The notes below the pieces were generated by a model. The model was given only the letters and a program-made list of their open reading frames with translations, searched no databases and had not been told where the DNA came from. Source: Escherichia phage vB_EcoM_LNA6. From it: a stretch of 64,000 nt of DNA. Location: sequence record OM630585.1, one strand, 5' to 3'. Below are positions 834 through 41,734 of this stretch, piece after piece; the first letter of the stretch is position 1, and every line of letters starts with the position of its first letter. The position numbers and the translations under genes were made by a program.

Positions 834-1349
834 TTATTTAACCTCAAAAACTGGCTCAAGAACCAATATAAAGTCTACACAGTCATCTTCTTCATCCAGA
901 ATACCATCAAAGTTCTTAGGAACGAAGTCGAAGAGGTTCATAACAAAGCAGTCAGAAGTGACCTTGATAGTTCCTCCCATGTTCTCTACAGTTAGCACTG
1001 TACGACTTTCTTTTACCTCCCTCAGAAGATTACCCACAAAGTCGTCTAAGAAGTACTTCATCAGTGACTTGAAACCTTTAGGGTAATCTGTACCAGAGTA
1101 TGTTTCAATCTGAGGAACAAGCTTAACATTTATACTAGTCTTTGTTAAGAACGTTTTAGAGAACATACTATCAGGTAACTTACAAACAGTCTTTCCAGTA
1201 CCTTCATGCTCAATCTCAACAAAACCAGCTTCGTCGCCACATGTAACTATTTTAAAAGATGCTTCATTCTCATACTGTGAAGCCATAAACTTTTTAAGCA
1301 TCTCTTTAAGGAAGTCTGCATGAGCATCTTGTAAGAAGATATCAATCAT
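834..1349 (-). CDS. hypothetical protein
   Basis: 171 aa ORF, tightly packed in minus-strand operon. Confidence 0.4.
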   Translation of the reverse strand: MIDIFLQDAHADFLKEMLKKFMASQYENEASFKIVTCGDEAGFVEIEHEGTGKTVCKLPDSMFSKTFLTKTSINVKLVPQIETYSGTDYPKGFKSLMKYFLDDFVGNLLREVKESRTVLTVENMGGTIKVTSDCFVMNLFDFVPKNFDGILDEEDDCVDFILVLEPVFEVK

Positions 1350-1362
1350 AGTTAATCACCTA

Positions 1363-1722
1363 TTATGGGAACAAACACTTAATGTCATCGTTTTTGAAAA
1401 CAAAACTTGTGTAATTATGACCATCAACATCCAGCCAAACAGCCTGAACATCTACACCATCAAGATTTTGGTAAAGCTCTTTGATGAAGTGGTCTTTTAC
1501 AATCTGACTGCTAGTTGTTTCCAACTTAATGTTCGAGATTGCTGAACCTACAGCCATATAGCCCATGACACGTTTCTTCTCAGTATGCTTAATCTTACCA
1601 TCTTTGTAAGCCATAATGAGATTGGAAAGAATCTTTACACCGTAATACTTTTCAAGGTGAGTAGGTACACCATAAAAGCCTAATGCGAAGTTTTCAGAGT
1701 GGATAATGTTTTCACGTTTCAT
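1363..1722 (-). CDS. hypothetical protein
   Basis: 119 aa ORF in operon context. Confidence 0.4.
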   Translation of the reverse strand: MKRENIIHSENFALGFYGVPTHLEKYYGVKILSNLIMAYKDGKIKHTEKKRVMGYMAVGSAISNIKLETTSSQIVKDHFIKELYQNLDGVDVQAVWLDVDGHNYTSFVFKNDDIKCLFP

Positions 1723-1723
1723 A

Positions 1724-2053
1724 CTAGTCTGCCAACCTTAAATTGAAATTAACACCAAATTTTTCACATACTTCCAACATATACTCAAGGGAAACATTAC
1801 CAGTGAGGTGGATTATGTTGGATACACGAGCCTGAGAGATACCACAAATTTTAGCAACTTGCTCTTGAGAAAGACCTCTTGATTTAATCTCTCTCTTAAA
1901 ACGATGTGCAACGAAGTCTCTCATTTCATCTACATCCATTGGACAAATATAACTCTCCATTTCAGCCTCTCTATCAGCCTCCCAATCATCTTGTGGGGCA
2001 TAAGGGTCAAAAACCTCATTCATCTTTCTTCTTCCGTTTGAGTGAAGTGTCAA
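1724..2053 (-). CDS. helix-turn-helix DNA-binding protein
   Basis: C-terminal GLSQEQVAKICGISQARVSNI resembles an XRE-type HTH. Confidence 0.5.
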   Translation of the reverse strand: MTLHSNGRRKMNEVFDPYAPQDDWEADREAEMESYICPMDVDEMRDFVAHRFKREIKSRGLSQEQVAKICGISQARVSNIIHLTGNVSLEYMLEVCEKFGVNFNLRLAD

Positions 2054-2228
2054 TCAATGAATCTATGTTTGTAGCCCTAACCTTTTCACGTTCATCATTA
2101 AGATAATCGTCAAGAGCCTTTTCAATCTGTGAATCATCTTGACAGATGACTGTAAAGACTGTAAAGCCGTCTGTATCGTCAATTATCTTACCATAACCGC
2201 TTCTGGGATGTAACTTTTTAAGAGCCAT
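2016..2228 (-). CDS. hypothetical protein
   Basis: 70 aa ORF overlapping neighbour end; weak. Confidence 0.3.
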   Translation of the reverse strand: MALKKLHPRSGYGKIIDDTDGFTVFTVICQDDSQIEKALDDYLNDEREKVRATNIDSLIDTSLKRKKKDE

Positions 2229-2229
2229 A

Positions 2230-2613
2230 TTAGATACCTGTGCAGCTTCTGTTTTCTAAGAAATACTCAACACCATACATAGCTTTTTGCATCAAATCTT
2301 CTTTAAACTGGATACGATGGTTGAGCATAGCCTGTACATCAATATCATCATGGTGCTTCTCTTTAATATTTGCAGATTGCAGGAAATACTCTGCAAGAAC
2401 GCGATACTGGTAGTCAGTTACCTTATCAGTCATCTCTGTCAAAGACTCTTCAGAGATTGGTTTAAGTAGCTCACCATTAGCTAGAGCAACACCTTTTACA
2501 ATCTGGCAAGTATCCTCTGGAACACCTGATAAGTCCACATTTGGAAGTTCTGTTGCATTGACTGGTAAATTCATTGCCATAACCATTGCAGCAGCTAATA
2601 AAATCTTTTTCAT
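2230..2613 (-). CDS. secreted protein with signal peptide
   Basis: N-terminal MKKILLAAAMVMAMNLPVNA hydrophobic signal followed by polar region. Confidence 0.45.
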   Translation of the reverse strand: MKKILLAAAMVMAMNLPVNATELPNVDLSGVPEDTCQIVKGVALANGELLKPISEESLTEMTDKVTDYQYRVLAEYFLQSANIKEKHHDDIDVQAMLNHRIQFKEDLMQKAMYGVEYFLENRSCTGI

Positions 2614-2639
2614 AATGACCTCAAAGTTATATTAAATTT

Positions 2640-2700
2640 TGTATTACATTGAGTATAAAAATAAGCTATAACACCTGACTTGTCAACAGATTTTATAGCT
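2640..2700. repeat. inverted repeat / hairpin (ataagctataa...ttatagcttat)
   Basis: Near-perfect palindrome arms at 2661-2671 and 2691-2701. Confidence 0.4.
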
Positions 2701-2830
2701 TATTTGGCAGATTTTTTATAAGGCTACTGCCATCCTTCCATACCTTACCTTACCACACCTAACCATACCTAACCAAACTACACCATACAATACCTTGTTA
2801 AAAGACCCTCTTAAAGACCTTTTAAAAAGG
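2700..2830. repeat. CA-rich degenerate tandem repeat tract, copy 1
   Basis: ccataccttaccttaccacacctaaccatacctaaccaaac...; almost G-free on plus strand; related tract at 3960-4230. Confidence 0.5.
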
Positions 2831-2848
2831 AGCCTCCGAAGAGGCTGC
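2815..2848 (-). terminator. intrinsic terminator
   Basis: Minus-strand ggcagcctcTTCGgaggctcc hairpin followed by T-run. Confidence 0.5.
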
Positions 2849-2857
2849 CTAGTCAAC

Positions 2858-3298
2858 TTAGAAAGGTTTTCTACGTTGCTTGTTAATGTTAGCTTTCATA
2901 GCAGCTAAATGGTTTTGCTGTTCAATTAGTCGTGAACGTTCTTGATGGCTAAGTGCCATAGTGTTCACATTCTCAATTGCTTGAGTGGCTTGCTTTAAAG
3001 CTCGACCAATCTTACCAGACATTTTACGTTTTGCAATAGTTGCTTGATGCTTAGGTTCAACCACACGATAACCAACACCCATTGAAGCAACCAGATAAAT
3101 CTTCTCTTCTTTAAGAAGCTTCTCAATAAACTTCTCAAGTCGGTTTAGACGTGTAAGCGCATAAGCCTTCATTTCATCTTCGTACTTAACAATGTCACCT
3201 TGATAAGTTGGCTTCACAATACCTAAGAAGGTGTCCATCTCAGAATGTGATACAGTGTCACCGTAACTAAACTTTGCTGCTAATGCTTTCGTATTCAT
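2858..3298 (-). CDS. hypothetical protein
   Basis: 146 aa ORF; terminator-like hairpin downstream on minus strand. Confidence 0.4.
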   Translation of the reverse strand: MNTKALAAKFSYGDTVSHSEMDTFLGIVKPTYQGDIVKYEDEMKAYALTRLNRLEKFIEKLLKEEKIYLVASMGVGYRVVEPKHQATIAKRKMSGKIGRALKQATQAIENVNTMALSHQERSRLIEQQNHLAAMKANINKQRRKPF

Positions 3299-3300
3299 AA

Positions 3301-3906
<606 letters not shown>

Positions 3907-3959
3907 TTAGTTGATTGTTAAGTTGTTTGTAAAGAACCCTCAACAGAAGACTCTTTAGA

Positions 3960-4230
3960 AACTTGGTAGATTTTTAACGTGGCTACTACCATCCACCCAT
4001 ACCTCACATCACCATACCATACCTGACCGGACCTAACCAAACTCCACAGCACCATACATCACATCACACAACCTTATTAAAAGCCCCTGTTTAAAGACCT
4101 TTTAAAAAGGTAAGTCTCATTTTAATGTAGCTGAGACTAACTACCCATACCAAACAGCACCGCACTATGCCTTACCCCACCTCACCGAGCCTCGCCCCAC
4201 ATCACTTAAAAACCCTTTTCAAAGACTCTT
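3960..4230. repeat. CA-rich degenerate tandem repeat tract, copy 2
   Basis: ccacccatacctcacatcaccataccatacctgacc... plus shared tail ttaaaagaccc/ttaaagaccttttaaaaagg. Confidence 0.5.
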
Positions 4231-4453
4231 AAGTGATGTTGGTGAGTACCCGTTGGTTTATGCTGCTCAGTATACTCACCAAATTTTCTATGTCAACAAC
4301 TTTTTATAAAAAAGTTCTGATAGCTATATGTGTCACGAAACAAAAGATTGTAAACAAGACACCCATTGCAAAAGATGTGTCCAAAAGCTTACTTGCAACG
4401 TATGACAATACAAAGACAACCAGTATAAACAGAATGACTGTACTGAACATAGT

Positions 4454-5554
4454 TTATTCATAATCCCTAATAACTAGCCCTACAGGGAACTGTAAAGACC
4501 CCTTACGAGTCATCTTCTGGAACTGAACCGTTAAAGGTTTCCCGATAAACTCTTCAGGGTGTTCAGCAAGATACTGTTTCTTCTCGTGAGTAGTCTTCCA
4601 TGAAACATCTACAAAGACGTTAGGAAGAGTCTCTACAACGAACTTACCATGACCACGCTTATCGGTCTTGACACCAGTCACTTTAAACTCTTCAGTGTGC
4701 ATCTTCTTGTGCTTAATCAAGAAGTATGAACGGTGACAACACTCATAGAAGGAGTCTTCAGAGATTGAACGGTACATTGCACCTTCAAACTTAGCTTCAA
4801 CCCACTTATCATGAGCTTCATCAAACTCTTCCCAAGAATTTACACGGATAGTCTGTACAGGAACAACTCTACAGGTATCCCCAAGCTCAACAATAGGTGA
4901 GTTATCAATAACTTCACGACGTTCAGGCCAAGATTTTGAATTGTCGCAGATATCATACCAGTAGAATTTAAGAAGGTGACGGTCTGGATTGTCAGCATTC
5001 TTAATCATAGACACAATGTCTTCTAAGTCCCAACCATGAGCATAAATCTCGCCATCAAAGTCTTCAACTTGTGGATGTAATTTAAGCAACAAAAGCAAAT
5101 CTGGGATTAGTTCTTCTGGAACGTTGTAAACAGTATTCTCACGAGAATAAGCCGTGAAACTAACTGAATCATCATCTCTTGAAATTCTACAACGAACACC
5201 ATCAAATTTTGGTTGAGCATCAGCAGGGAACTTCAGGTACTTCGCATGACTAACCTTTGCAGCATCATGAGCAAGCTGTACACCTACCTTCTCAGTATTC
5301 TGTGCAGACTCTTTTGTGTAAGCATAACCTTTACGGTCAACTTGCTTTTTATACTTAGCAGCAACTTCAAAGAGAGCTTGCTGTTCAGTGTTACGCTCAT
5401 TCTTTTTACCGATGTTTTTAGGTTCTGCTGTATACTCTTCAAACATCATCTTGCCATTTTCTTTACCGTAGGTTGTAATAACTTTGTCACCTACAGCAAC
5501 GCATGACCAGACGTTGAAGGAACCGTCTTTATTTTGTTTGTACAGAATTGTCAT
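4454..5554 (-). CDS. ATP-dependent DNA ligase
   Basis: 366 aa; KFDGVRC matches ligase adenylation motif I (KxDG); size fits T7-type ligase. Confidence 0.65.
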   Translation of the reverse strand: MTILYKQNKDGSFNVWSCVAVGDKVITTYGKENGKMMFEEYTAEPKNIGKKNERNTEQQALFEVAAKYKKQVDRKGYAYTKESAQNTEKVGVQLAHDAAKVSHAKYLKFPADAQPKFDGVRCRISRDDDSVSFTAYSRENTVYNVPEELIPDLLLLLKLHPQVEDFDGEIYAHGWDLEDIVSMIKNADNPDRHLLKFYWYDICDNSKSWPERREVIDNSPIVELGDTCRVVPVQTIRVNSWEEFDEAHDKWVEAKFEGAMYRSISEDSFYECCHRSYFLIKHKKMHTEEFKVTGVKTDKRGHGKFVVETLPNVFVDVSWKTTHEKKQYLAEHPEEFIGKPLTVQFQKMTRKGSLQFPVGLVIRDYE

Positions 5555-11716: not shown

Positions 11717-12460
11717 ATGAGTAATATTATTGCATTTACTGGAAAGGCACGTTCTGGAAAAGACACCTCATGTTCTATTGTGAAGAACATCTTAGAGGAT
11801 GAGTACGGCTACAATGTTGCAGTAATGGCCTATGCAGACAACCTTAAACTATCTGCATCAAAGATATTTGACCTGACTTGGAATGACCTGTATGGTGAAA
11901 CTAAAGAGACTCCACAGGTTTTTGACTTATCATATTCCGAACTTATGTTCAAAGTTACTGAAGCTATGGAGTTTACCTTCAGAGGTGAACGTTATCATAC
12001 GGACTTTAAACTTATGTCGGAATTGACAGGACGCTTAATCATGGAGCTTAAGAAGGTTGCTAAACCGACTCTATTAACACGTCTGGGATTTAGCAACAAG
12101 TATAAATTCTCATCAAGACAAATTCAACAGATTTGGGGCACTGAAGTTATCCGTAAAGTTATGGGTGACAAGTTCTGGGCTAAAGACCTCGAAAAACGAA
12201 TGGTAAATTTCTTTGATGTTTGCTCACTTAGAAATCAAGAAGGTGTTGTTTTAATCAGTGATTTAAGATTTGACTCTGAAGCTGAGTGGCTGAGTAGATT
12301 TGCACACCAAACTATTGAAGTAAAAAGAAACAATGTGGACAAAGTTTCATCACATGTTTCAGAAAATGGGATTTCTACCAAATATGCGCGTGACATTATT
12401 CATAATAATGGTACTCTTGAAGACCTTGAGAGCAAACTAAGAGCTATCCTGAAGATTTAA
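11717..12460 (+). CDS. deoxynucleoside monophosphate kinase-like P-loop protein
   Basis: N-terminal P-loop FTGKARSGKDT; size and position typical of phage dNMP kinase. Confidence 0.55.
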   Translation: MSNIIAFTGKARSGKDTSCSIVKNILEDEYGYNVAVMAYADNLKLSASKIFDLTWNDLYGETKETPQVFDLSYSELMFKVTEAMEFTFRGERYHTDFKLMSELTGRLIMELKKVAKPTLLTRLGFSNKYKFSSRQIQQIWGTEVIRKVMGDKFWAKDLEKRMVNFFDVCSLRNQEGVVLISDLRFDSEAEWLSRFAHQTIEVKRNNVDKVSSHVSENGISTKYARDIIHNNGTLEDLESKLRAILKI

Positions 12461-12468
12461 AAGAGATA

Positions 12469-12669
12469 ATGAAGATGAGAGTAAAAGACAATTTTAAAGT
12501 TATTGACCACCGTTTAGTGGAACTCTCATCTCTTTCCAATGAGGTAATGATTGAACGTCTTAAGAGAGTTGAATCACGAAGGAAAGAGATTGCAGATGAA
12601 ATTCATGAACTGGACAAGATTGAAAATGGATTGAAGGCAGAACTACAACGAAGAGGTGCTAATGTCTAA
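12469..12669 (+). CDS. hypothetical coiled-coil protein
   Basis: 66 aa ORF. Confidence 0.3.
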   Translation: MKMRVKDNFKVIDHRLVELSSLSNEVMIERLKRVESRRKEIADEIHELDKIENGLKAELQRRGANV

Positions 12670-14647
12670 AGGTCGTAAATTGAAAGAGGCTGGTCAGTTT
12701 GTTGGTCATTGTGCATGTCCACGTTGTGGTTCATCAGATGCTGGTTCAATCTATCATCATGACGATGATTCTTATTCGATGACTTGCTTTAGTTGTAAGA
12801 AAGGTTTCCCAGAGTGGGATTTTGATAAAGGACAAATCGTGAGCACTTATTCTACTGGTTCAGACAATAAAAACCGTACTTTCCGTGGAATGGATTTAGA
12901 CGATGTAAAAGAAAACCTAGAAGCAATGGACTTGAAAGACAGGAAGATTCCTGCAAAAGTTCTTGAGCGTTTGGGTATTAAGGTTGACATTGACAGTGAT
13001 GGTGAAATTGACGCACATTTCTACCCAACTTACAAACGTAATGAAGGTGGTAAGCTAGAACATGTTGGCTACCGTGTTCGTCACCGTTACCCAGAAGACC
13101 ATCCAAAAGAGCACCTACGTGGTAAGTTAAAAGACTTCTCAGGTGGTGTTGGAGACATTAAAGGTGAACTGGCAATGTTCGGTTCATGGATTGCTCCAGA
13201 AGGTGGTAACCGCCTATTCATCTGGGAAGGTGAGATGGAATGTGCGACAGCAATCTATATGACTTCTCTTGCGATTAAGGACAAGTCTCGTCGTAAGAAT
13301 TACTGTCACGTATCTGTTCCATCGGGTGCAAATATTAAATCTATCAAAGACAACTATCAGTACATCACATCATTTGATGAGATTTACTTGTGCTTTGATA
13401 ATGATGAAGCAGGTGCTAAAGCTACCAAAGAGGCTGCTGGTATCCTTCCGATTGAGAAGGTTCGTTTATTCCAGTATCCAGAAGGTGTAAAAGACCTTAA
13501 CGAATGGTGGACAAAGTTCTATAAAGAGAAAGATACGGTTCTGGAAGGATTTAAGCAGCGTATCTACAATGCGCCTCGTTACTGTCCTGCTGGTATCAAG
13601 AACTTCGCAGATGGTTTTGAGGCAATGAAGAATCGTGGTCAGATTCCATTGATTCCTTTCCCAGAATCTTTCGGAGATTTGAACAGGCTGACTTATGGTG
13701 GTTACGGTTTAGGTGAGATTACAACTCTGGCAGCACCATCTTCAGTGGGTAAATCTGCATACACTCGTGAAATGATTTATACTGCTTGGAAAGATACCGA
13801 TTACAATATTGGTGTAATTCCTGTAGAAGATACCTATGAAGAGTTGATGGAGATGCTCTGTGCAATCCACCTGAGCAAGCAGATTTCTGAGATTCCTTAT
13901 GACGAACGTGATTGGGATGAATTGAAGGAAGCACACGCAGAACTATCTAAAGGTCGTCGTATCCACATCGTTGACCATCAAGGGGCAATTGACCAAGATA
14001 ACTTGCTGGAATTTGTTGACTATCTTGTTAACAGTTTAGACTGTAAGATTATTATTCTTGACCCTATTACGTTGGCTCTGTCACGTTCAGATACGGATGA
14101 AGAGGAAGTTTTGTCTGAGCTATTGCGTCGTTGCAAACGCTACCAGTATGCACAGGTGAACGTCTGTCACGTTCGTAAGAGTGCAGGTGGTCAGAAGGCT
14201 AACTCTGAAGGTGGGGATATCTCTGAAGAGGATATTAAAGGTTCTGGTGCGTATTTCCAGATTTCTATGAACAACATTCTGTTAATGCGTAACAAGGTTG
14301 ACCCAGACCCTGTTAAGAAAAACTTGACAAAAATCAAGCTAACTAAATGTCGTCGTCACGGTAAGTCAACGGGTATTGCTGGTCATACTTGGTACAATCC
14401 AGATACAGGACGTCTTATTAAAGCATCTGGTTGTGGAGTTGACATTGATGGTGCAGCAGAAAACATTCGCCAGCAGTTTGGTATTGGTGAAGCTGAAGAC
14501 CATTATGATGATTCTTTACCGCATTATGAGGATGAAGTGTTTGACCGTGAGACTGGTGAAGTCTATACTGAAGAGCAGCGCCAAAGCTCAACGATTCCAC
14601 CTGTATTAAGTGAGGATGCAGATGACTGCCCATTCGAAACTGAGTGA
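12656..14647 (+). CDS. DNA primase-helicase (T7 gp4-like)
   Basis: 663 aa; N-terminal Cys4 zinc ribbon (CACPRCG...CFSC), central TOPRIM-like region, C-terminal Walker A (SVGKSA) helicase. Confidence 0.8.
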   Translation: MLMSKGRKLKEAGQFVGHCACPRCGSSDAGSIYHHDDDSYSMTCFSCKKGFPEWDFDKGQIVSTYSTGSDNKNRTFRGMDLDDVKENLEAMDLKDRKIPAKVLERLGIKVDIDSDGEIDAHFYPTYKRNEGGKLEHVGYRVRHRYPEDHPKEHLRGKLKDFSGGVGDIKGELAMFGSWIAPEGGNRLFIWEGEMECATAIYMTSLAIKDKSRRKNYCHVSVPSGANIKSIKDNYQYITSFDEIYLCFDNDEAGAKATKEAAGILPIEKVRLFQYPEGVKDLNEWWTKFYKEKDTVLEGFKQRIYNAPRYCPAGIKNFADGFEAMKNRGQIPLIPFPESFGDLNRLTYGGYGLGEITTLAAPSSVGKSAYTREMIYTAWKDTDYNIGVIPVEDTYEELMEMLCAIHLSKQISEIPYDERDWDELKEAHAELSKGRRIHIVDHQGAIDQDNLLEFVDYLVNSLDCKIIILDPITLALSRSDTDEEEVLSELLRRCKRYQYAQVNVCHVRKSAGGQKANSEGGDISEEDIKGSGAYFQISMNNILLMRNKVDPDPVKKNLTKIKLTKCRRHGKSTGIAGHTWYNPDTGRLIKASGCGVDIDGAAENIRQQFGIGEAEDHYDDSLPHYEDEVFDRETGEVYTEEQRQSSTIPPVLSEDADDCPFETE

Positions 14648-29936: not shown

Positions 29937-30258
29937 AGAGAAGTGGGAGATTTTACCATTAGTCAGTGAAGGTGGTAATGGTTGTGAGATGTACATGATA
30001 CGTGGTCATGTTCCAGAACCAATTGCACTTGAGATGGTAAACAACTTTACAGATGGTTCTTACAAAGACTTAGGCGAACCAACTGTCAAGCAACAATGGG
30101 TTAAACCTGTACCAGACAGCACAGGTAACTGTAGTGTACTTTATCACGTTGTAGACCCTGCAAAATGCAAATCTGCAATGGCAGTAACAAACGTAACTTT
30201 GATTGAGAGAGAAAACTATGAAGACATCTATCCGTGTTACAGTTCATTCACCAACTAA
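29929..30258 (+). CDS. hypothetical protein
   Basis: 109 aa ORF. Confidence 0.35.
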   Translation: MAKEKWEILPLVSEGGNGCEMYMIRGHVPEPIALEMVNNFTDGSYKDLGEPTVKQQWVKPVPDSTGNCSVLYHVVDPAKCKSAMAVTNVTLIERENYEDIYPCYSSFTN

Positions 30259-31099
30259 AGGAACTCATGAAGAGGAGTTTAACATCATCCAATTTCCTTC
30301 TGGTGAGATTGGTGGACACTTTTCGCCAGAGTTTGTTGATTTCACTGCTTATGCAGCATCATCCATCAACAATGTGATTATGATTGTAAAAGGTTATGAT
30401 AAGGATACATTGTTTGCTGTTGCACTTGCTAAAGAAGCAATTGATGATTTAGTCCCTCATGACTATGCCTTAAAGACTGTCATCTTTTACTACTTACCAA
30501 ATGCACGTTATGACCGTCACATGTTTAAAGGTGACGCAGCAGCTTTAAAGGTTTTTGCTAAACAGGTAAATGCAATGGGATTTGGTGCAGTCTGTGCAGT
30601 TGACCCTCACAGTTACGTTCCAGATAACCTGTTTAACTGCTTCCAGAGTATTCCTCAAAAGGAGATTGCAGTTCACTACGCAAATGACCCACTGATTGAT
30701 TACTTAGTAGCCCCAGATGCAGGTGCTTCTAAGAAGATTGCAGAGACTGCTAAAGAGGTGGATAAACCATACATCACAATGTCTAAAGTACGCAACCTCA
30801 AGACTGGTGAAATTACTGGTATGCGAATCCTTGACGATGTTGATTTGACAGATAAAACCGTCATGATTCTTGATGATATCTGTGATGGTGGTCGAACCTT
30901 CGTAGAGGCAGCTAAACACCTACGTGAAGCAGGTGCAAAACGTGTTGAGCTTTATGTAACACATGGTATCTTCTCTAAAGGTGTTGAAAACCTTCTTGAC
31001 AACGGTATCGACCATATTTACACTACAAACTCTTTAGGCGAAGCTAAAGACCGTGGCTTAACACATTATAGTCAAGTTACTGTAGCAAATTTGGATTAG
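30218..31099 (+). CDS. ribose-phosphate pyrophosphokinase-like protein (candidate ADP-ribose pyrophosphokinase Adps)
   Basis: About 293 aa; type I phosphoribosyltransferase motif MILDDICDGGRT; Prs-like size; next to NadV homolog. Confidence 0.7.
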   Translation: MKTSIRVTVHSPTKGTHEEEFNIIQFPSGEIGGHFSPEFVDFTAYAASSINNVIMIVKGYDKDTLFAVALAKEAIDDLVPHDYALKTVIFYYLPNARYDRHMFKGDAAALKVFAKQVNAMGFGAVCAVDPHSYVPDNLFNCFQSIPQKEIAVHYANDPLIDYLVAPDAGASKKIAETAKEVDKPYITMSKVRNLKTGEITGMRILDDVDLTDKTVMILDDICDGGRTFVEAAKHLREAGAKRVELYVTHGIFSKGVENLLDNGIDHIYTTNSLGEAKDRGLTHYSQVTVANLD

Positions 31100-31107
31100 G
31101 TATTAAA

Positions 31108-31599
31108 ATGGATAAGGGTTACTTCGAAAAATACCTAATATACGAACCGGAGACAGGTTTACTAATTTGGAAAGTAACCCTTTGCAATACCGCTATTGCT
31201 GGTAATGTTGCTGGCACAAGGTCTAAGAAGGGTTATATCCAAGTCCAGATAAATAAGAAGAGGTACTATGCACATAATATTGCATGGATTATGTCTGGAG
31301 GTGAGATACCAAGTGGATATGAGATAGACCACATAGACCTTGATAAATCTAATAATAAGTTGGAGAATTTAAGACTTAGCACAAAGTCACAAAATCAGAG
31401 GAATAGGGGTATATACAAGAATAATAAAACTGGTGTGAAGGGTGTAAGTTTTTGTAAACAAACAGGTCTTTACAAAGCAAGAGTCATGCTTTACCATAAA
31501 GAATACTTTTGTGGAAGATTTAAAACGGTAGAAGAAGCAAAAGAAGCTGTAATTAAAAAGCGAATAGAACTTCATGGTGAGTTTGCAAGACATAACTAA
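31108..31599 (+). CDS. HNH homing endonuclease with AP2-like domain
   Basis: YAHNIAWIMSG...IDHID HNH core and TGVKGVSFCKQTGLYKARV AP2-type motif; inserted between Prs-like and NadV-like genes. Confidence 0.7.
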   Translation: MDKGYFEKYLIYEPETGLLIWKVTLCNTAIAGNVAGTRSKKGYIQVQINKKRYYAHNIAWIMSGGEIPSGYEIDHIDLDKSNNKLENLRLSTKSQNQRNRGIYKNNKTGVKGVSFCKQTGLYKARVMLYHKEYFCGRFKTVEEAKEAVIKKRIELHGEFARHN

Positions 31600-31613
31600 G
31601 AGAGAGATAAAAT

Positions 31614-33395
31614 ATGAGTAAGTCACTTTACGCAGTACCAGCAGGTCTTAATGCAGATGCTTACAAGGCATCACATATATATCAGTATCCAGATGCTACG
31701 CAATATCTTATGTTGAACCTGACACCACGTAGTGACAAATGGTTTAACAGCCCCTTAGCAATTGATGGTGTAGTAGCTTTTGGTATTCAACGTTTCGTTA
31801 AAGATTACTTGATAGACCACTGGAACGCCACTTTCTTTGAACGTGATAAAAAAGAAGCCATTGATGAAATCTTAGAAGTCATGAACGGTGTTCTGGGCAA
31901 AGATGCTATTGGTCGAGAGCATTGGGAAGCACTTCACGACTTAGGTTATCTGCCAGTCGAAGTATACGCTGTAGAAGAAGGCACAGTTGTTCCGATGCGT
32001 GTCCCAATGATTGCCTTCCAGAACACTGTTTCAGGATTCCATTGGGTAGCAGGTTATCTGGAAGATGCTTTCTCTGCTGAGATTTGGAAGGCTTGCACTA
32101 TTGCGACTATTGCATTGCACTACAAACGTATCTGTAAGAAGTGGGCTGACCTTACTTGCGACAATGAATTACATTTACCTTATCAGTGCCATGACTTTGC
32201 TATGCGTGGTATGTCCGGCTTTACCGATGACGCATTTAATGCTGTAGGTCACTTAACCAGCTTTAAAGGAACTGATAGCTTCCCTGCTGTATACACGGCT
32301 AAACGCATCTATGGACAGTCTTACCCAATTTCTGATATTGGTAGTTCTGTACCAGCCACTGAACACTCTGTAATGTGTGCAAATATTGCTTGGGAAGGTG
32401 GTAATGAATTGATTGAAGAAGAAAGACGCTTTAAAGGTGAGTTGCAAACCTTCCGTCGTTTCTTAACAGAAACTTACCCAACTGGTATTGCAAGCATTGT
32501 GTCAGATACTTATAACTTCTGGAGAACTGTGTCAGAAATCTTACCAGCACTCCGTAAAGAAATTATGGAACGTGACGGTAAGCTGGTAATTCGCCCTGAC
32601 TCTGGAGACCCTGTACATATTGTCACAGGTTATAAAGCAATCCACTTAGAGTGTGCTAAAAAGGCTTATTACGAGCACCTAAGCAAGCTGGAAGCTAGTG
32701 ATACAATGCTGAACTCTGTTCTGAACATGAAGCTTGAAAACATCAACTATGGTATTGCTGGATGGCTACTGTCAGAAGGCTACGAAATGGTTGTTGACCG
32801 AGAAGACTTTGAAGTTGCTGATACAGTGATGTTGAAAAATGCTTATATGGTTGGTTCTGCAAACGTTGTAACACGTCCTGTAGCAGAGATTGATGGAGCT
32901 ATTAAGACCCTGTATAACATCTTCGGAGGAACTATCAACTCTAAAGGTTTTAAGGTACTGGATGAGCACATTGGACTTATCTATGGTGACTCTATCACAC
33001 TGGAACGTGCAAACGAAATCCTGAAGCGTCTGTATGAAATGGGTTTTGCAAGCTCTAACGTAGTGTTTGGCGTAGGCTCTTACACTTACCAGTACATGAC
33101 TCGTGACACCTTTGCATTTGCTGTTAAAGCAACTCTTGCAAGCATTGGTGGTAAAGAGATTATGCTTGCAAAAGACCCTAAAACAGATAGTGGTGTGAAG
33201 AAGTCTGCCTTTGGTGGTGTAGCACCTATGTGGGATGGTGATAAGCTGAAAGCTGTAGATGGCTATGGGTTCCAGAGCTTTGCAGATGCACTTGAACATC
33301 CAGCTTGTGCTCTACGCTTAGTCTTTAGTGATTCTGAGCAGTATGGTTACACATCTCTTGGTGATATTCGAAATAATATTGACAAACAGCTTTAA
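31614..33395 (+). CDS. nicotinamide phosphoribosyltransferase family protein (NadV/Namat-like)
   Basis: 593 aa; N-terminal YKASHIYQYP and overall Nampt/NadV architecture. Confidence 0.8.
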   Translation: MSKSLYAVPAGLNADAYKASHIYQYPDATQYLMLNLTPRSDKWFNSPLAIDGVVAFGIQRFVKDYLIDHWNATFFERDKKEAIDEILEVMNGVLGKDAIGREHWEALHDLGYLPVEVYAVEEGTVVPMRVPMIAFQNTVSGFHWVAGYLEDAFSAEIWKACTIATIALHYKRICKKWADLTCDNELHLPYQCHDFAMRGMSGFTDDAFNAVGHLTSFKGTDSFPAVYTAKRIYGQSYPISDIGSSVPATEHSVMCANIAWEGGNELIEEERRFKGELQTFRRFLTETYPTGIASIVSDTYNFWRTVSEILPALRKEIMERDGKLVIRPDSGDPVHIVTGYKAIHLECAKKAYYEHLSKLEASDTMLNSVLNMKLENINYGIAGWLLSEGYEMVVDREDFEVADTVMLKNAYMVGSANVVTRPVAEIDGAIKTLYNIFGGTINSKGFKVLDEHIGLIYGDSITLERANEILKRLYEMGFASSNVVFGVGSYTYQYMTRDTFAFAVKATLASIGGKEIMLAKDPKTDSGVKKSAFGGVAPMWDGDKLKAVDGYGFQSFADALEHPACALRLVFSDSEQYGYTSLGDIRNNIDKQL

Positions 33396-37626: not shown

Positions 37627-38175
37627 ATGAAGAAATTGATTCTAGGTTTGTGCTTAATGTTTACAGCACACTTATCTTATGCAGTTGACTGCCCAGAGCT
37701 ATCAATTAGCCAAAAAGTAAACATGTTAAAAGCTTACCAGTATGGTGAGAATAACATGGGCAAAGGTTGGGGTATCACTCTAGCTGCTATAGCCTTACAA
37801 GAGTCAGAGTTAGGTCTGAAGGTAGAGAATAAAAAGACACATGATTATGGTATTTTCCAGAATCACTTGAAGACTGTTGTAAAGCGTAACAAAATTAGTC
37901 CTAATGTGGCTAAAAAGAAACTCTTAAAAGACTTTGACTATGCTGCGAAGGAAACGCACAAAGAGCTTGAGTTTTGGACAAAGGTGCATGGTCAGCCAAA
38001 GTCAAAGAAGACTTTACAAAAAGTTTTAGCATCATATAATGCTGGGTATTCGTACAGAATCCCTAAAGCTAAGAAATACTCTCAAGATGTCTATAACAAT
38101 ATGAAAGTTATCGCTCAATGTGAATTTGCAACAAACATTTCTAAGGTAAATCATGAAAAAATTAAGAAAGTCTGA
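37627..38175 (+). CDS. secreted lytic transglycosylase-like protein (putative)
   Basis: Signal peptide; QESELG...YGIFQN resembles SLT catalytic Glu/GLMQ region. Confidence 0.4.
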   Translation: MKKLILGLCLMFTAHLSYAVDCPELSISQKVNMLKAYQYGENNMGKGWGITLAAIALQESELGLKVENKKTHDYGIFQNHLKTVVKRNKISPNVAKKKLLKDFDYAAKETHKELEFWTKVHGQPKSKKTLQKVLASYNAGYSYRIPKAKKYSQDVYNNMKVIAQCEFATNISKVNHEKIKKV

Positions 38176-38848
38176 TGAAGTCCTGTGTCATGCTTATGAC
38201 TTGCATCCTCATGAGTTTGGTCTTGATTCCTGTGTATGGACTCCAGAACAGTGCAGGGATTTTGAAGACACTGCAAGAGAAGTTGTATGTTCACTTGAAG
38301 ATTTCCACACCTCAGAACCAATTGTGAATGTTGTAGATAAAGAGACTGGACAAACTATAGGTGTAAGTCGTGATAGCTTAGTCATAGTCAATAAAGACCT
38401 TGTAGAAAAAGGTAACCTCATCTTAGCAGATATTGATGGTGTTCTTACAAATTTTAATCACGAAGATTGCTCAACGGAATTGACTGATGGGTCATTCTCA
38501 CAGTACACTAATCTTCTTGACTCTGTAAGAGCAAAACCAACGTATGTCTTTAGTATTATTGATGCAATTGCTAATCATGCTGCCATTGGACTCTTGACAG
38601 CGAGAGGTGAATCTCAGAGAATACCTACTGAGATGTTTTTAAGGCACAACATAGAGCATGACTACATGCTTTTTATGCGTGGTTTTGGAACTAACTCTAT
38701 AAGTGCAGAAAGTTTGAAAGTGAGGATGATTCAGTCTTGCATCCTGCCTTACTTTAATATAGTATGTTTTATAGAAGACACAGAGAAGAATGTGCAGAAG
38801 GTGAACAGAATCCTTCCACACATTAAAACCATGTTAGTTAAACATTGA
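38153..38848 (+). CDS. hypothetical protein
   Basis: 231 aa ORF. Confidence 0.4.
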   Translation: MKKLRKSDEVLCHAYDLHPHEFGLDSCVWTPEQCRDFEDTAREVVCSLEDFHTSEPIVNVVDKETGQTIGVSRDSLVIVNKDLVEKGNLILADIDGVLTNFNHEDCSTELTDGSFSQYTNLLDSVRAKPTYVFSIIDAIANHAAIGLLTARGESQRIPTEMFLRHNIEHDYMLFMRGFGTNSISAESLKVRMIQSCILPYFNIVCFIEDTEKNVQKVNRILPHIKTMLVKH

Positions 38849-39323: not shown

Positions 39324-39335
39324 GGTTAAGATACA

Positions 39336-39356
39336 GGCTCCTTCGGGAGCCTTTTT
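39336..39356 (+). terminator. intrinsic terminator
   Basis: ggctccTTCGggagcc hairpin + TTTTT. Confidence 0.6.
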
Positions 39357-39375: not shown

Positions 39376-39723
39376 ATGACATTTAAAGAGTTCTGTCAAG
39401 CCACTTTCATAATTGTTTTCTTAGTTGGGGCAGGTGTCTGGGGGGGATACTCTTACAGAGACTATCAAGTTGCTGAAACTGAGCTAAATAATCAAAAGCT
39501 CATAAGTGTTGCTAAAGATGCTTATCAGGAAGGATTAGCCACACTCAGCACCAATTACAAAAATGATTTGAAAGATGTGCTTGCTAAGAATAAGCACACA
39601 AAAGAGGTACTAACATATGAAAAAACTAAGCCAGAGTTTTATAATGTTTGTGTTACTGATAACTATGTCAGGGTGTTCAACGAACAAAGTGAGCAGTACA
39701 TTCAAAAACTCCCAAGTAAGTGA
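39376..39723 (+). CDS. i-spanin-like protein (putative)
   Basis: N-terminal transmembrane helix then charged coiled-coil region; overlapped by lipoprotein ORF in another frame. Confidence 0.4.
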   Translation: MTFKEFCQATFIIVFLVGAGVWGGYSYRDYQVAETELNNQKLISVAKDAYQEGLATLSTNYKNDLKDVLAKNKHTKEVLTYEKTKPEFYNVCVTDNYVRVFNEQSEQYIQKLPSK

Positions 39724-39886
39724 GAGTGATAAGTACACTCAAGAAGAATCACGGTATATCATCAAAGGTAACACAGGCAGTGATGTAGCAGCAGCCCTTG
39801 AGTTCTATCGTGACGGCTTTTACCAGTGTACAATCAAAGCTAATAACCTTATTGACATGATTTTATTAGGGAATAAGCAGCAATGA
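39617..39886 (+). CDS. o-spanin-like lipoprotein (putative)
   Basis: 89 aa; signal peptide with lipobox-like TMSGC; embedded in 3' end of preceding gene. Confidence 0.4.
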   Translation: MKKLSQSFIMFVLLITMSGCSTNKVSSTFKNSQVSESDKYTQEESRYIIKGNTGSDVAAALEFYRDGFYQCTIKANNLIDMILLGNKQQ

Positions 39887-40683: not shown

Positions 40684-40876
40684 CTTCTGTAAAGACTGTT
40701 CTATCGAAATGTTCGGACGTGATACAGGTGACTTAAAAGGTCTTATCACTGAAGATGATTTTAAAGCTGGTTATGCAATGCCAGTAATCTGTGAAGGTTG
40801 TGGGTGCATCTGGGTAGACCACGAAGGACAACGTGTAAAACCTTCAGAAGATAAAGAATCTTGGGAGAGATGCTAA
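40677..40876 (+). CDS. Cys-rich small protein (hypothetical)
   Basis: MADFCKDC...CEGCGC; start adjusted to ATG inside track ORF 40586..40876. Confidence 0.3.
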
Positions 40877-41662
40877 ATGGGTATTGTAAAAATCATCAAT
40901 GGGGATATCTTCTCCGCATTTGATAAAGGTAAGTTTGATATTATTGGTCACGGTTGCAACTGTATGAATTTAATGGGTGCAGGTATCGCTGACAAGATTT
41001 CTAAACTTTACCCAAAAGCATATGAGACCGATACAGAAGTTTATCTGTATGCAGGTGGCATAGGCCACAAACCCTGTGAAAATTTACTAGGGAATTTCTC
41101 TGTAGCACGTTTAGAACAAGGCCGTATAGCTAACCTTTACACACAACTTCATACTGGTAAAGATGCCAGATACAGTGCTTTAGAGTCATCTTTGAAGAAA
41201 CTTAACAGGTACTGTGAAGTCAATCAGTTGAAGAAAGTCGGGTTACCTATGATTGGCGCAGGTATCGGTGGACTAGACCCTCAAGCCGTCACAGTTATCA
41301 TTAATCAGGTGATGAAGAGTGTAGATGTTTATCTGTATGTCTACGAAGGAGAGATGTACCACAAGTTACGCTCAGGTTGGAATAACTACTGTGAACCAGA
41401 ATACTTTGCAGGTGTAGTAATGTTCACAGATGATACGGTTACCCTCTTCAGACGAAGAAAAGGTAAGATACATCAAAGTAACCCTCCGGTTGAAAAGATG
41501 TCTCTAAGTAACGCTCTAGTTACCCACCTGTCAAAGAGCAATCACAGAATTGCTGTAACATTTGGTAGTGATGCAGAAGCTTATATCTATGCAAGAACTG
41601 ATGAGGATATCGAGGCAATCTTCTCTTCACCAGAAGTTACCTTCTTAGACGCAAAGAACTAA
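40877..41662 (+). CDS. macro-domain protein (ADP-ribose binding/processing)
   Basis: 261 aa; N-terminal IINGDIF...IIGHGCNCMNLMGAGIA matches macro-domain core. Confidence 0.6.
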   Translation: MGIVKIINGDIFSAFDKGKFDIIGHGCNCMNLMGAGIADKISKLYPKAYETDTEVYLYAGGIGHKPCENLLGNFSVARLEQGRIANLYTQLHTGKDARYSALESSLKKLNRYCEVNQLKKVGLPMIGAGIGGLDPQAVTVIINQVMKSVDVYLYVYEGEMYHKLRSGWNNYCEPEYFAGVVMFTDDTVTLFRRRKGKIHQSNPPVEKMSLSNALVTHLSKSNHRIAVTFGSDAEAYIYARTDEDIEAIFSSPEVTFLDAKN

Positions 41663-41734
41663 GAAACTCTGTAGTATATTCACAATAGCCTAAGCCTTTC
41701 TTATCTGGTAAATTTTTCAGGTAAGGAGGGCTTT

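Follow-up and report, generated by a model that had tools for sequence, protein, structure and literature searches.

Within a 64,000-nucleotide stretch of DNA from Escherichia phage vB_EcoM_LNA6 (sequence record OM630585.1; this whole stretch is hereafter the window), the open reading frame at 40877..41662 encodes an Ounavirinae member of the phage Poa1p-like/ALC1-like macro domain family (PHROG 335), referred to below as the macro protein. That phage macro domains act as counter-defence enzymes is already established; new here is a lineage-specific two-domain variant with a tail of roughly 100 residues. The substrate assignment that we prefer, tentatively and as a possibility somewhat short of probable, is that the macro protein serves as an orphan DarG-like antitoxin of the AdfM type, which would erase DarT2 marks on phage single-stranded DNA (ssDNA).

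The source phage is a Felixounavirus (a Felix-O1-like myovirus), a genus often represented among therapeutic and model phages. Over the 6 kb that surround the macro gene, the window is 96% identical to Escherichia phage bumzen, and the macro protein itself is 99.6% identical to bumzen_95 and 95% identical to its orthologue bas63_0095 in the BASEL phage Bas63/JohannRWettstein; both proteins are annotated 'putative phosphatase', and GenBank already labels the gene as a phosphatase. Full-length orthologues of the two-domain macro protein were recovered in 257 phage records. The usual tRNA cluster is present in the window. The gene, its flanking signals and its two parts lie as follows:

40863..40869, plus strand: Shine-Dalgarno-like GGGAGAG, 7 nt before the macro-gene ATG, read from the sequence
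40877..41662, plus strand: coding sequence of the macro protein (261 aa, ATG start, stop codon included)
40877..41347, plus strand: macro domain, aa 1-157, alpha/beta/alpha fold (Pfam, AF2, Foldseek and DarG profiles)
41348..41659, plus strand: C-terminal part, aa 158-261 (104 aa), predicted by AF2
41692..41733, plus strand: terminator-like hairpin followed by a T-run, 30 nt 3' of the macro-gene stop

The frame at 40877..41662 is a real gene, translated and selected over its whole length with less constraint on the tail, because dN/dS was low in both parts in pairwise comparisons of four Felixounavirus orthologues (0.04-0.09 for residues 1-157 and 0.25-0.35 for residues 158-261). Since the stop codon of a small upstream ORF (TAA, 40874-40876) abuts the macro-gene ATG, the two are likely to be translationally coupled, and the macro gene appears to be the last gene in its transcription unit. 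It is flanked by small phage ORFs and spanins, with a PNK-like gene 2 kb upstream; among the neighbouring ORFs examined, no darT or other ART-like gene was annotated or detected by Pfam. Our literature search returned no paper on the Felixounavirus macro protein, nor any on Bas63 versus DarTG.

Residues 1-157 can be assigned with confidence to a macro domain. The first-pass annotation had recognized such a domain in the N-terminal string IINGDIF...IIGHGCNCMNLMGAGIA, read in the translation of this frame, and profile searches bear this out: Pfam PF01661 matched aa 25-141 at profile positions 2-117 of 118 (32.1 bits against a gathering cut-off of 22 bits; E = 1.2e-7), and PHROG 335 ('phosphatase') matched over the full length (E = 1e-112). 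Structure prediction, which had been proposed as a check, likewise returned the fold, with the full-length AF2 model (built from 32 sequences; pLDDT 92, pTM 0.88) placing a macro fold in residues 1-157 and Foldseek against the PDB matching it to TARG1 (E = 3e-10, TM 0.84), DarG (TM 0.80), BT1257 (0.80) and Poa1p (0.76); sequence and profile searches of the PDB also ranked TARG1, DarG and Poa1p-type folds on top. The macro fold reaches about residue 157, which shortens the C-terminal extension, earlier put at 140 aa, to about 104 aa.

The catalytic motifs of the MacroD class, which Rack, Perina and Ahel reportedly described in 2016 as Nx6GG[VLI]D in loop 1 and G[VIA][YF]G in loop 2, are absent from the macro protein, and for this reason its sequence places the domain in the ALC1-like/Poa1p-like class and not with MacroD. 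A MacroD-type hydrolase was accordingly discarded as a candidate (N28-CMNLMG-AGIA has no GG[VLI]D, and loop 2 reads G-I-G-G), and MacroD, initially suggested for comparison of catalytic residues, proved to be the wrong class to compare with. DarG was the sole PADLOC and NCBIfam model matched by the macro protein, with the profiles aligned to aa 7-163 (PADLOC DarG: 50.1 bits, E = 6.6e-14, positions 17-146 of 329; NCBIfam NF048014: 50.9 bits against a curated cut-off of 250, positions 4-153 of 338). Membership among the DarG antitoxins themselves was rejected on score, domain content and context.

Alignments of 19 sequences (A1) and 32 sequences (A2) placed three motifs in the active site:

40949..40990, plus strand: loop-1 ADP-ribose-binding motif H25-G-C-N28-C-M-N-L-M-G-A-G-I-A38 (alignments)
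41132..41146, plus strand: N86-L-Y-T-Q90 motif (TARG1 profile alignment and multiple alignment)
41246..41272, plus strand: loop-2 diphosphate-binding motif P124-M-I-G-A-G-I-G-G132 (alignments)

Positions invariant in A2 comprised H25, G26, N28, C29, M33, G36 and A38 of loop 1 (to which A1 adds N31, G34 and A35) as well as N86, L87, T89, Q90, P124, G127 and G129. H25 aligned with H23 of Poa1p (PDB 6LFQ), which has HxCNC in common with the macro protein, and with H32 of human TARG1/OARD1 (PDB 4J5R), which has M-G-A-G-I-A in common with it, both being cellular enzymes with 22-24% sequence identity to the macro protein; N28 aligned with N22 of DarG2 (T. aquaticus/M. tuberculosis; PDB 5M31, 5M3E and 5M3I). 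The glycine-rich segments M33-G-A-G-I-A38 and I126-G-A-G-I-G-G132, of the kind that in macro domains holds the diphosphate and distal ribose of ADP-ribose, match their counterpart loops in TARG1, DarG and Poa1p in the alignments and show little or no variation, and the ADP-ribose-binding loops can be read as intact. The catalytic machinery differs: Q90 sits at the position of the catalytic Lys of TARG1 (K84) and DarG (K80), and G131 stands at the position of TARG1 D125. Gln occupies the Lys position in every aligned phage family member and is invariant in the 32 sequences of A2, unlike in DarG and the PhiKZ AdfM, both of which keep the catalytic Lys (K80 and K78, respectively), and unlike in Poa1p, which has Ser there. 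Because Q90 replaces the Lys and G131 replaces the Asp, the Lys-dependent mechanism of TARG1 and DarG is, on these alignments, excluded for the macro protein.

By tblastn, the macro part was found in 2,803 phage records (the PHROG 335 family), with carriers including T4-like phages, KVP40, Vequintavirinae, Ackermannviridae and Pseudomonas phages. Judged by its tested members, the PHROG 335-type family can be regarded as a counter-defence family in phages. One of these members, T4 Tk.4, was the one gene that a transposon screen (HIDEN-SEQ) picked out on a DarTG2 host and was named AdfM (anti-DarT factor macrodomain); its clean deletion sensitizes T4 to DarTG2, evidence that is genetic only (preprint 10.1101/2025.11.20.689424). 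The other, Adpp of Vibrio phage Gary, converts in purified form ADPR-1''-phosphate (ADPR-1''P), the product of aRES (RES-domain), to ADPR; its gene lies inside a NARP1 operon, Adps and Namat carry the resulting ADPR on to NAD+ in the pathway termed NARP1-AP, and the three-gene operon overrides aRES (preprint 10.64898/2026.01.28.702374). A more distant phage macro protein with the Lys, PhiKZ gp104, is an anti-DarTG2 enzyme (PMC13309987). With two functions reported in the family for very similar active sites, the macro protein offers a third test case for substrate choice. Knowledge of its substrate would show the reach of one phage's counter-defence over DarTG2, aRES and SIR2/TIR depletion and would aid host-range prediction on defence-bearing strains.

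The macro protein would be catalytically active, hydrolysing ADP-ribose adducts at C1'' of the distal ribose, presumably through a Gln-assisted, water-mediated mechanism such as that proposed for SCO6735 of Streptomyces coelicolor (PDB 5E3B) in place of the Lys mechanism. In the AdfM-type role, removal of the ADP-ribose that DarT2-type toxins place on ssDNA thymidines would let phage replication proceed on DarTG2 hosts, and the C-terminal domain, which evolves fast, would serve as an accessory for targeting or partner binding, dispensable for catalysis. A second activity on ADPR-1''P would be compatible with this DNA-eraser role.

Several lines of evidence point in this direction. The macro protein and T4 Tk.4 are 35% identical across the whole macro domain (aa 3-157; E = 1e-23), have the motifs HGCNC, NLYTQ and P.IGAGIG in common and carry the same PHROG 335-type 'phosphatase' annotation, and both are encoded by orphan genes with no adjacent toxin in virulent E. 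coli myoviruses; Tk.4 differs in being a 155-aa single domain without the extra 104-aa C-terminal domain, and T4 in having no NARP1. The DarG-model scores of the macro protein exceed those of T4 AdfM (36 bits in PADLOC and 30 in NCBIfam) and of the Adpp-like protein of Vibrio phage Thalassa (39 and 31). The closest solved structures, TARG1 and DarG, are both robust on thymidine-ADPr, TARG1 alone being comparably robust in a human panel (PMC12879935). Q90 corresponds to the described position of Gln85 in SCO6735, an ALC1-like protein in which Gln likewise replaces the catalytic Lys; there, Gln85 is essential, and the enzyme clears ADP-ribose from thymidines in ssDNA and relieves cells of DarT toxicity despite having no cognate DarT (PMC9411070). 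Finally, the gene lies outside the NARP1 operon, and most operon macro proteins differ from it in their motifs.

Against this stand the purely genetic support for T4 AdfM, with DNA activity reported for no Gln-bearing phage family member, and the distance of SCO6735, which is a bacterial chromosomal protein with a long mobile loop instead of a C-terminal domain, was absent among the PDB sequence-search matches and is related to the macro protein at class level only. The sole biochemically characterized phage member, Gary Adpp, is an ADPR-1''P phosphatase that also carries the Gln, and it is nearly as close: Thalassa gp184, a close Gary Adpp orthologue, has 30% identity to the macro protein (E = 9e-17) and 34% to T4 Tk.4. 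Moreover, the motif argument comes from few lineages, Poa1p also has Thr before the equivalent position, and the phage does carry NARP1, the genes of which lie upstream in the window:

30218-31099, plus strand: Adps (Prs-like; Pfam; 79% identity to Bas63 gene 79)
31108-31599: HNH endonuclease ORF interrupting the NARP1 pair (Pfam)
31614-33395, plus strand: Namat (NadV-like; Pfam; 97% identity to Bas63 gene 80)
39335-39352: terminator-like hairpin between Namat and the macro gene

The Prs-like/NadV-like pair is, by sequence identity, orthologous to NARP1 of Bas63, the Felixounavirus in which NARP1 was discovered and experimentally defined. The first-pass annotation was therefore right that an NAD+ pair is present upstream; the distance that it gave (about 8 kb) becomes 7.5-10.7 kb for the pair at 30218-33395. 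Downstream of Namat, 7.5 kb and 15 genes intervene before the macro gene starts (Bas63: genes 0079/0080 versus 0095), with rIIA/rIIB, a lysin-like gene, the PNK-like gene, spanins and a strong terminator-like hairpin in between. The order NARP1, rIIA-rIIB, PNK-like gene and macro gene is kept in Kolesnikvirus and in two metagenomic Ounavirinae-like contigs, where the macro proteins at the syntenic sites have only 33-37% identity; gene order conserved in this way shows stable co-occurrence and not a functional link.

A close rival, which would be compatible with the AdfM-type role if the enzyme is promiscuous, is that the macro protein works as an Adpp in trans (a dispersed NARP1-AP), converting ADPR-1''P to ADPR, from which Adps and Namat would then rebuild NAD+. 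We consider this conceivable but, taken by itself, somewhat unlikely; it would give the toolkit idea of the first-pass annotation its specific form. Like Gary Adpp, the macro protein belongs to the PHROG 335 family and has Gln at the Lys position in a phage that also encodes Adps and Namat, and it has H..NC, N.Y.Q and P.IG.G in common with the Thalassa orthologue. Purified Gary Adpp makes ADPR from ADPR-1P and its operon overrides aRES; aRES is found in E. coli, Klebsiella and Enterobacter; the window's own Adps and Namat are the Bas63-type pair; macro gene and NARP1 co-occur syntenically in Felixounavirus, Kolesnikvirus and the two metagenomic contigs; and the N-terminal HxCNC is common to yeast Poa1p, a known ADPR-1''P phosphatase.

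The differences from Adpp are in location, motifs and architecture. The Adpp gene is placed between Adps and Namat or beside them, and was operationally defined as a macro gene within two genes of NARP1 (preprint 10.64898/2026.01.28.702374); the macro gene, 15 genes away behind a terminator-like hairpin, falls outside this definition, although it has both homology to a characterized Adpp and NARP1 in the same genome. Synteny inside one phage backbone is itself weak evidence of a functional link, and the preprint table includes no Escherichia, Salmonella or Erwinia phage (10.64898/2026.01.28.702374). Adpp carries HQCNC and NVYGQ, as opposed to HGCNC and NLYTQ in the macro protein, and Adpps have no C-terminal domain; the identity and DarG-profile scores lean slightly to T4 AdfM.

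Motif states were compared across the NARP1-adjacent macro proteins of the preprint table (about 128). Most of them have H-Q/V-x-N-C plus Y-G/A/S-Q, with YGQ in 105 and HGCNC in only 13; HGCNC and NLYTQ, the states of the macro protein and T4 Tk.4, are thus unlike those of most operon Adpps. Together with the DarG-profile scores, these motif states slightly favour an AdfM-type role, but the motif evidence is weak because few independent lineages contribute to it and because NARP1-adjacent macro proteins of Acinetobacter phages carry HGCNC/YTQ, the T4-type motifs. A neighbour-joining tree (46 sequences, 300 bootstraps) recovered the Ounavirinae proteins as their own clade (72%) without a supported sister group, grouped T4 with KVP40 (69%) and placed the NARP1-operon macro proteins elsewhere; its deep nodes lack support, and the phylogeny does not separate an AdfM from an Adpp role. 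Most family members, that of T4 included, appear to act without an adjacent NARP1, since the family spans ~2,800 records and about 130 macro genes adjoin NARP1 among the 20,185 genomes of an earlier and smaller release (10.64898/2026.01.28.702374).

That both activities, DNA de-ADP-ribosylation and ADPR-1''P hydrolysis, matter in vivo strikes us as doubtful; such dual use is plausible in that both roles share their chemistry, hydrolysis at C1'' of the distal ribose. The broader proposal of the first-pass annotation, an ADP-ribose/NAD-centred counter-defence toolkit, stands as far as its components go, namely the family (AdfM, Adpp) and NARP1. Joint action of the macro protein with NARP1 does not have the same standing and is only plausible, given the 15 genes and at least one terminator-like site between them, the AdfM-type motifs and a tree that gives no decision. 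By family membership, the macro protein would be an ADP-ribose-centred counter-defence enzyme, for which a specific link to NARP1 is plausible.

The macro protein could instead hydrolyse some other ADP-ribose conjugate, on RNA, on protein, among immune signals or among RNA-repair by-products, which we judge to be distinctly improbable. RNA candidates include CmdT-type mRNA modification and ADP-ribosylation of RNA ends or 2'-OH groups; signal candidates include Thoeris cADPR isomers and His-ADPR; and, as by-products, ADPR-1''P/Appr>p could arise in RNA repair along with the PNK-like enzyme encoded close by. Macro domains accept C1''/C2'' adducts promiscuously, proteins too are among the substrates of SCO6735 (PMC9411070), and Iyer et al. 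argue that phage macro proteins mainly target soluble ADPr derivatives (PMC9503650). In KVP40 and KpS8, the family gene has pseT or an RNA ligase 1-3 genes away, and the window has its PNK-like gene 2 kb upstream, but neither an RNA ligase nor Tpt1/KptA was seen near the macro gene in the window. The family's two experimental data points are DarTG2 and ADPR-1P and include none of these substrates, and in a study of RNA ADP-ribosylation, NADARs reversed the guanosine modification, whereas the macrodomain-like and ARH-like hydrolases tested were inactive on that substrate.

Loss of the TARG1/DarG Lys and of the TARG1 Asp (Q90 and G131) could also signify a non-catalytic ADP-ribose reader or sponge, binding ADPR-containing molecules or, via the C-terminal domain, a host ADP-ribosyltransferase. 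Inactive forms of SCO6735, DarG and TARG1 continue to inhibit DarT by interacting with it (PMC9411070), and a fast-evolving C-terminal domain would suit a protein-protein interface. We nevertheless consider a purely non-catalytic role highly unlikely: Gary Adpp, which is enzymatically active, has the same Gln, SCO6735 requires it for catalysis, H25, N28 and Q90 are invariant across the family, and the macro core evolves at a dN/dS of 0.04-0.09.

What is new in the protein is its C-terminal domain. In the AF2 model it comprises a linker helix (158-167) and a beta-rich domain of six strands within 179-239 and a helix (242-249); the pLDDT is about 90 within the full-length model and 76 in a model of the domain by itself, and because the full-length pTM is 0.88, the model suggests fixed packing of the domain on the macro core. 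A full-length homologue search yielded 19 two-domain relatives, whereas a word-index search with the C-terminal 105 aa by themselves gave no match, an outcome of the index and not a sign that relatives are absent. The C-terminal domain evolves 4-5 times faster than the macro core; identities in the same pairs are 45-53% versus 76-80%, and in distant pairs 16-22% versus 40-54%. A Pfam search of the domain gave no match, a BFVD fold search returned the SUSP2 orthologue only, and a C-terminal HMM run against 1.84 billion representative proteins recovered just the same two-domain macro proteins plus one fragment. Three giant repeat proteins from that HMM search (a retroelement polyprotein, a YDG/MBG adhesin and an fn3-like protein) were discarded as summed low-complexity repeat scores. 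By these sequence and fold searches, the C-terminal domain appears lineage-specific, with relatives confined to these proteins.

The arrangement recalls DarG, in which a macro domain is likewise joined to a second, C-terminal domain; the macro gene differs in having no darT neighbour, and the half of DarG that binds DarT (profile positions about 150-338) found no match in the C-terminal domain. Charge might have hinted at binding or mimicry of DNA, but it varies without a common direction among the domain's relatives (pI 4.8-9.7), and this absence of a pointer to DNA binding counts against an AdfM-type role. The most reasonable guess is that the C-terminal domain is a partner-binding or targeting adaptor. 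Extending this, the tail may be a rapidly evolving module not described before, and the macro protein might be a two-pronged orphan antitoxin in which the macro core erases the mark (or dephosphorylates ADPR-1''P) while the tail binds and blocks a partner or recruits the enzyme to it, an independent reinvention of the DarG design that we regard as unlikely. DarT2, aRES, the replisome or ssDNA, and Adps/Namat are among the partners that could be named. The macro proteins of Kolesnikvirus and of Vibrio phage VAP7 have tails of their own, and hhalign of these against the C-terminal domain gave a probability below 1%; were the two-pronged arrangement correct, such unrelated tails would be alternative adaptors swapped in an arms race. 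An orphan C-terminal domain in one lineage and unrelated tails in its sister lineages hint at modular adaptors mounted on a conserved eraser.

The active-site segments of the window's macro protein (aa 25-29 and 86-90) were compared with the macro proteins of NARP1 operons, which carry the NAD+-rebuilding pair Adps and Namat, using Supplementary Table S1 of 10.64898/2026.01.28.702374. The residue after the conserved His is mostly Gln or Val in the NARP1-operon proteins, whereas it is Gly in T4 Tk.4 (AdfM) and the Ounavirinae proteins; likewise, the residue before the catalytic-position Gln is mostly Gly, Ala or Ser in the former and Thr in the latter. These contrasting residue states may constitute a substrate-specificity signature, a reading that shared ancestry confounds.

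Beyond the active site, C-terminal extensions were found on three other family members:

Macro proteins with C-terminal extensions
L007 (Erwinia phage vEam_PM_6 locus), 11998-12780: extension of ~100 aa
L009 (Vibrio phage VAP7 locus), 2486-3220: extension of ~90 aa
L010 (Klebsiella phage KpS8 locus), 2480-3091: extension of ~45 aa

The Felixounavirus-type C-terminal domain showed no similarity to the Kolesnikvirus and VAP7 macro tails, and thus a single conserved macro core bears differing tails.

RNA-repair genes often lie close to macro family members, as in the KVP40 and KpS8 loci:

RNA-repair genes and a candidate near macro genes
L008 (KVP40 locus), 1026-3010: interval with pseT near the macro gene
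L010 (KpS8 locus), 2480-4541: interval with RNA ligase near the macro gene
Window, 38153-38848: polynucleotide kinase by annotation in related phages, preceding the macro gene by 2 kb

The product of the window gene at 38153-38848 had no Pfam match, and its relatives gave weak HAD_PNKP matches only.

Within NARP1 itself, a further ORF lies between Adps and Namat:

Window, 31108-31599: homing-endonuclease ORF, by its HNH_3 and AP2 domain composition

In the related phages bumzen and Bas63, Adps and Namat are spaced by ~45 nt, with no intervening endonuclease ORF. Against the Bas63 proteins, identity is 97% for the window's Namat but just 79% for its Adps, which lies 5' of the insertion; homing-associated sequence exchange could be a source of this difference.

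The macro gene's apparent transcription unit, delimited by terminator-like hairpins (39335-39352 and 41692-41733), also includes four small ORFs without known function and a spanin pair:

Window, 39376-39886: i-spanin/o-spanin site

Such company is unusual for a presumed counter-defence gene.
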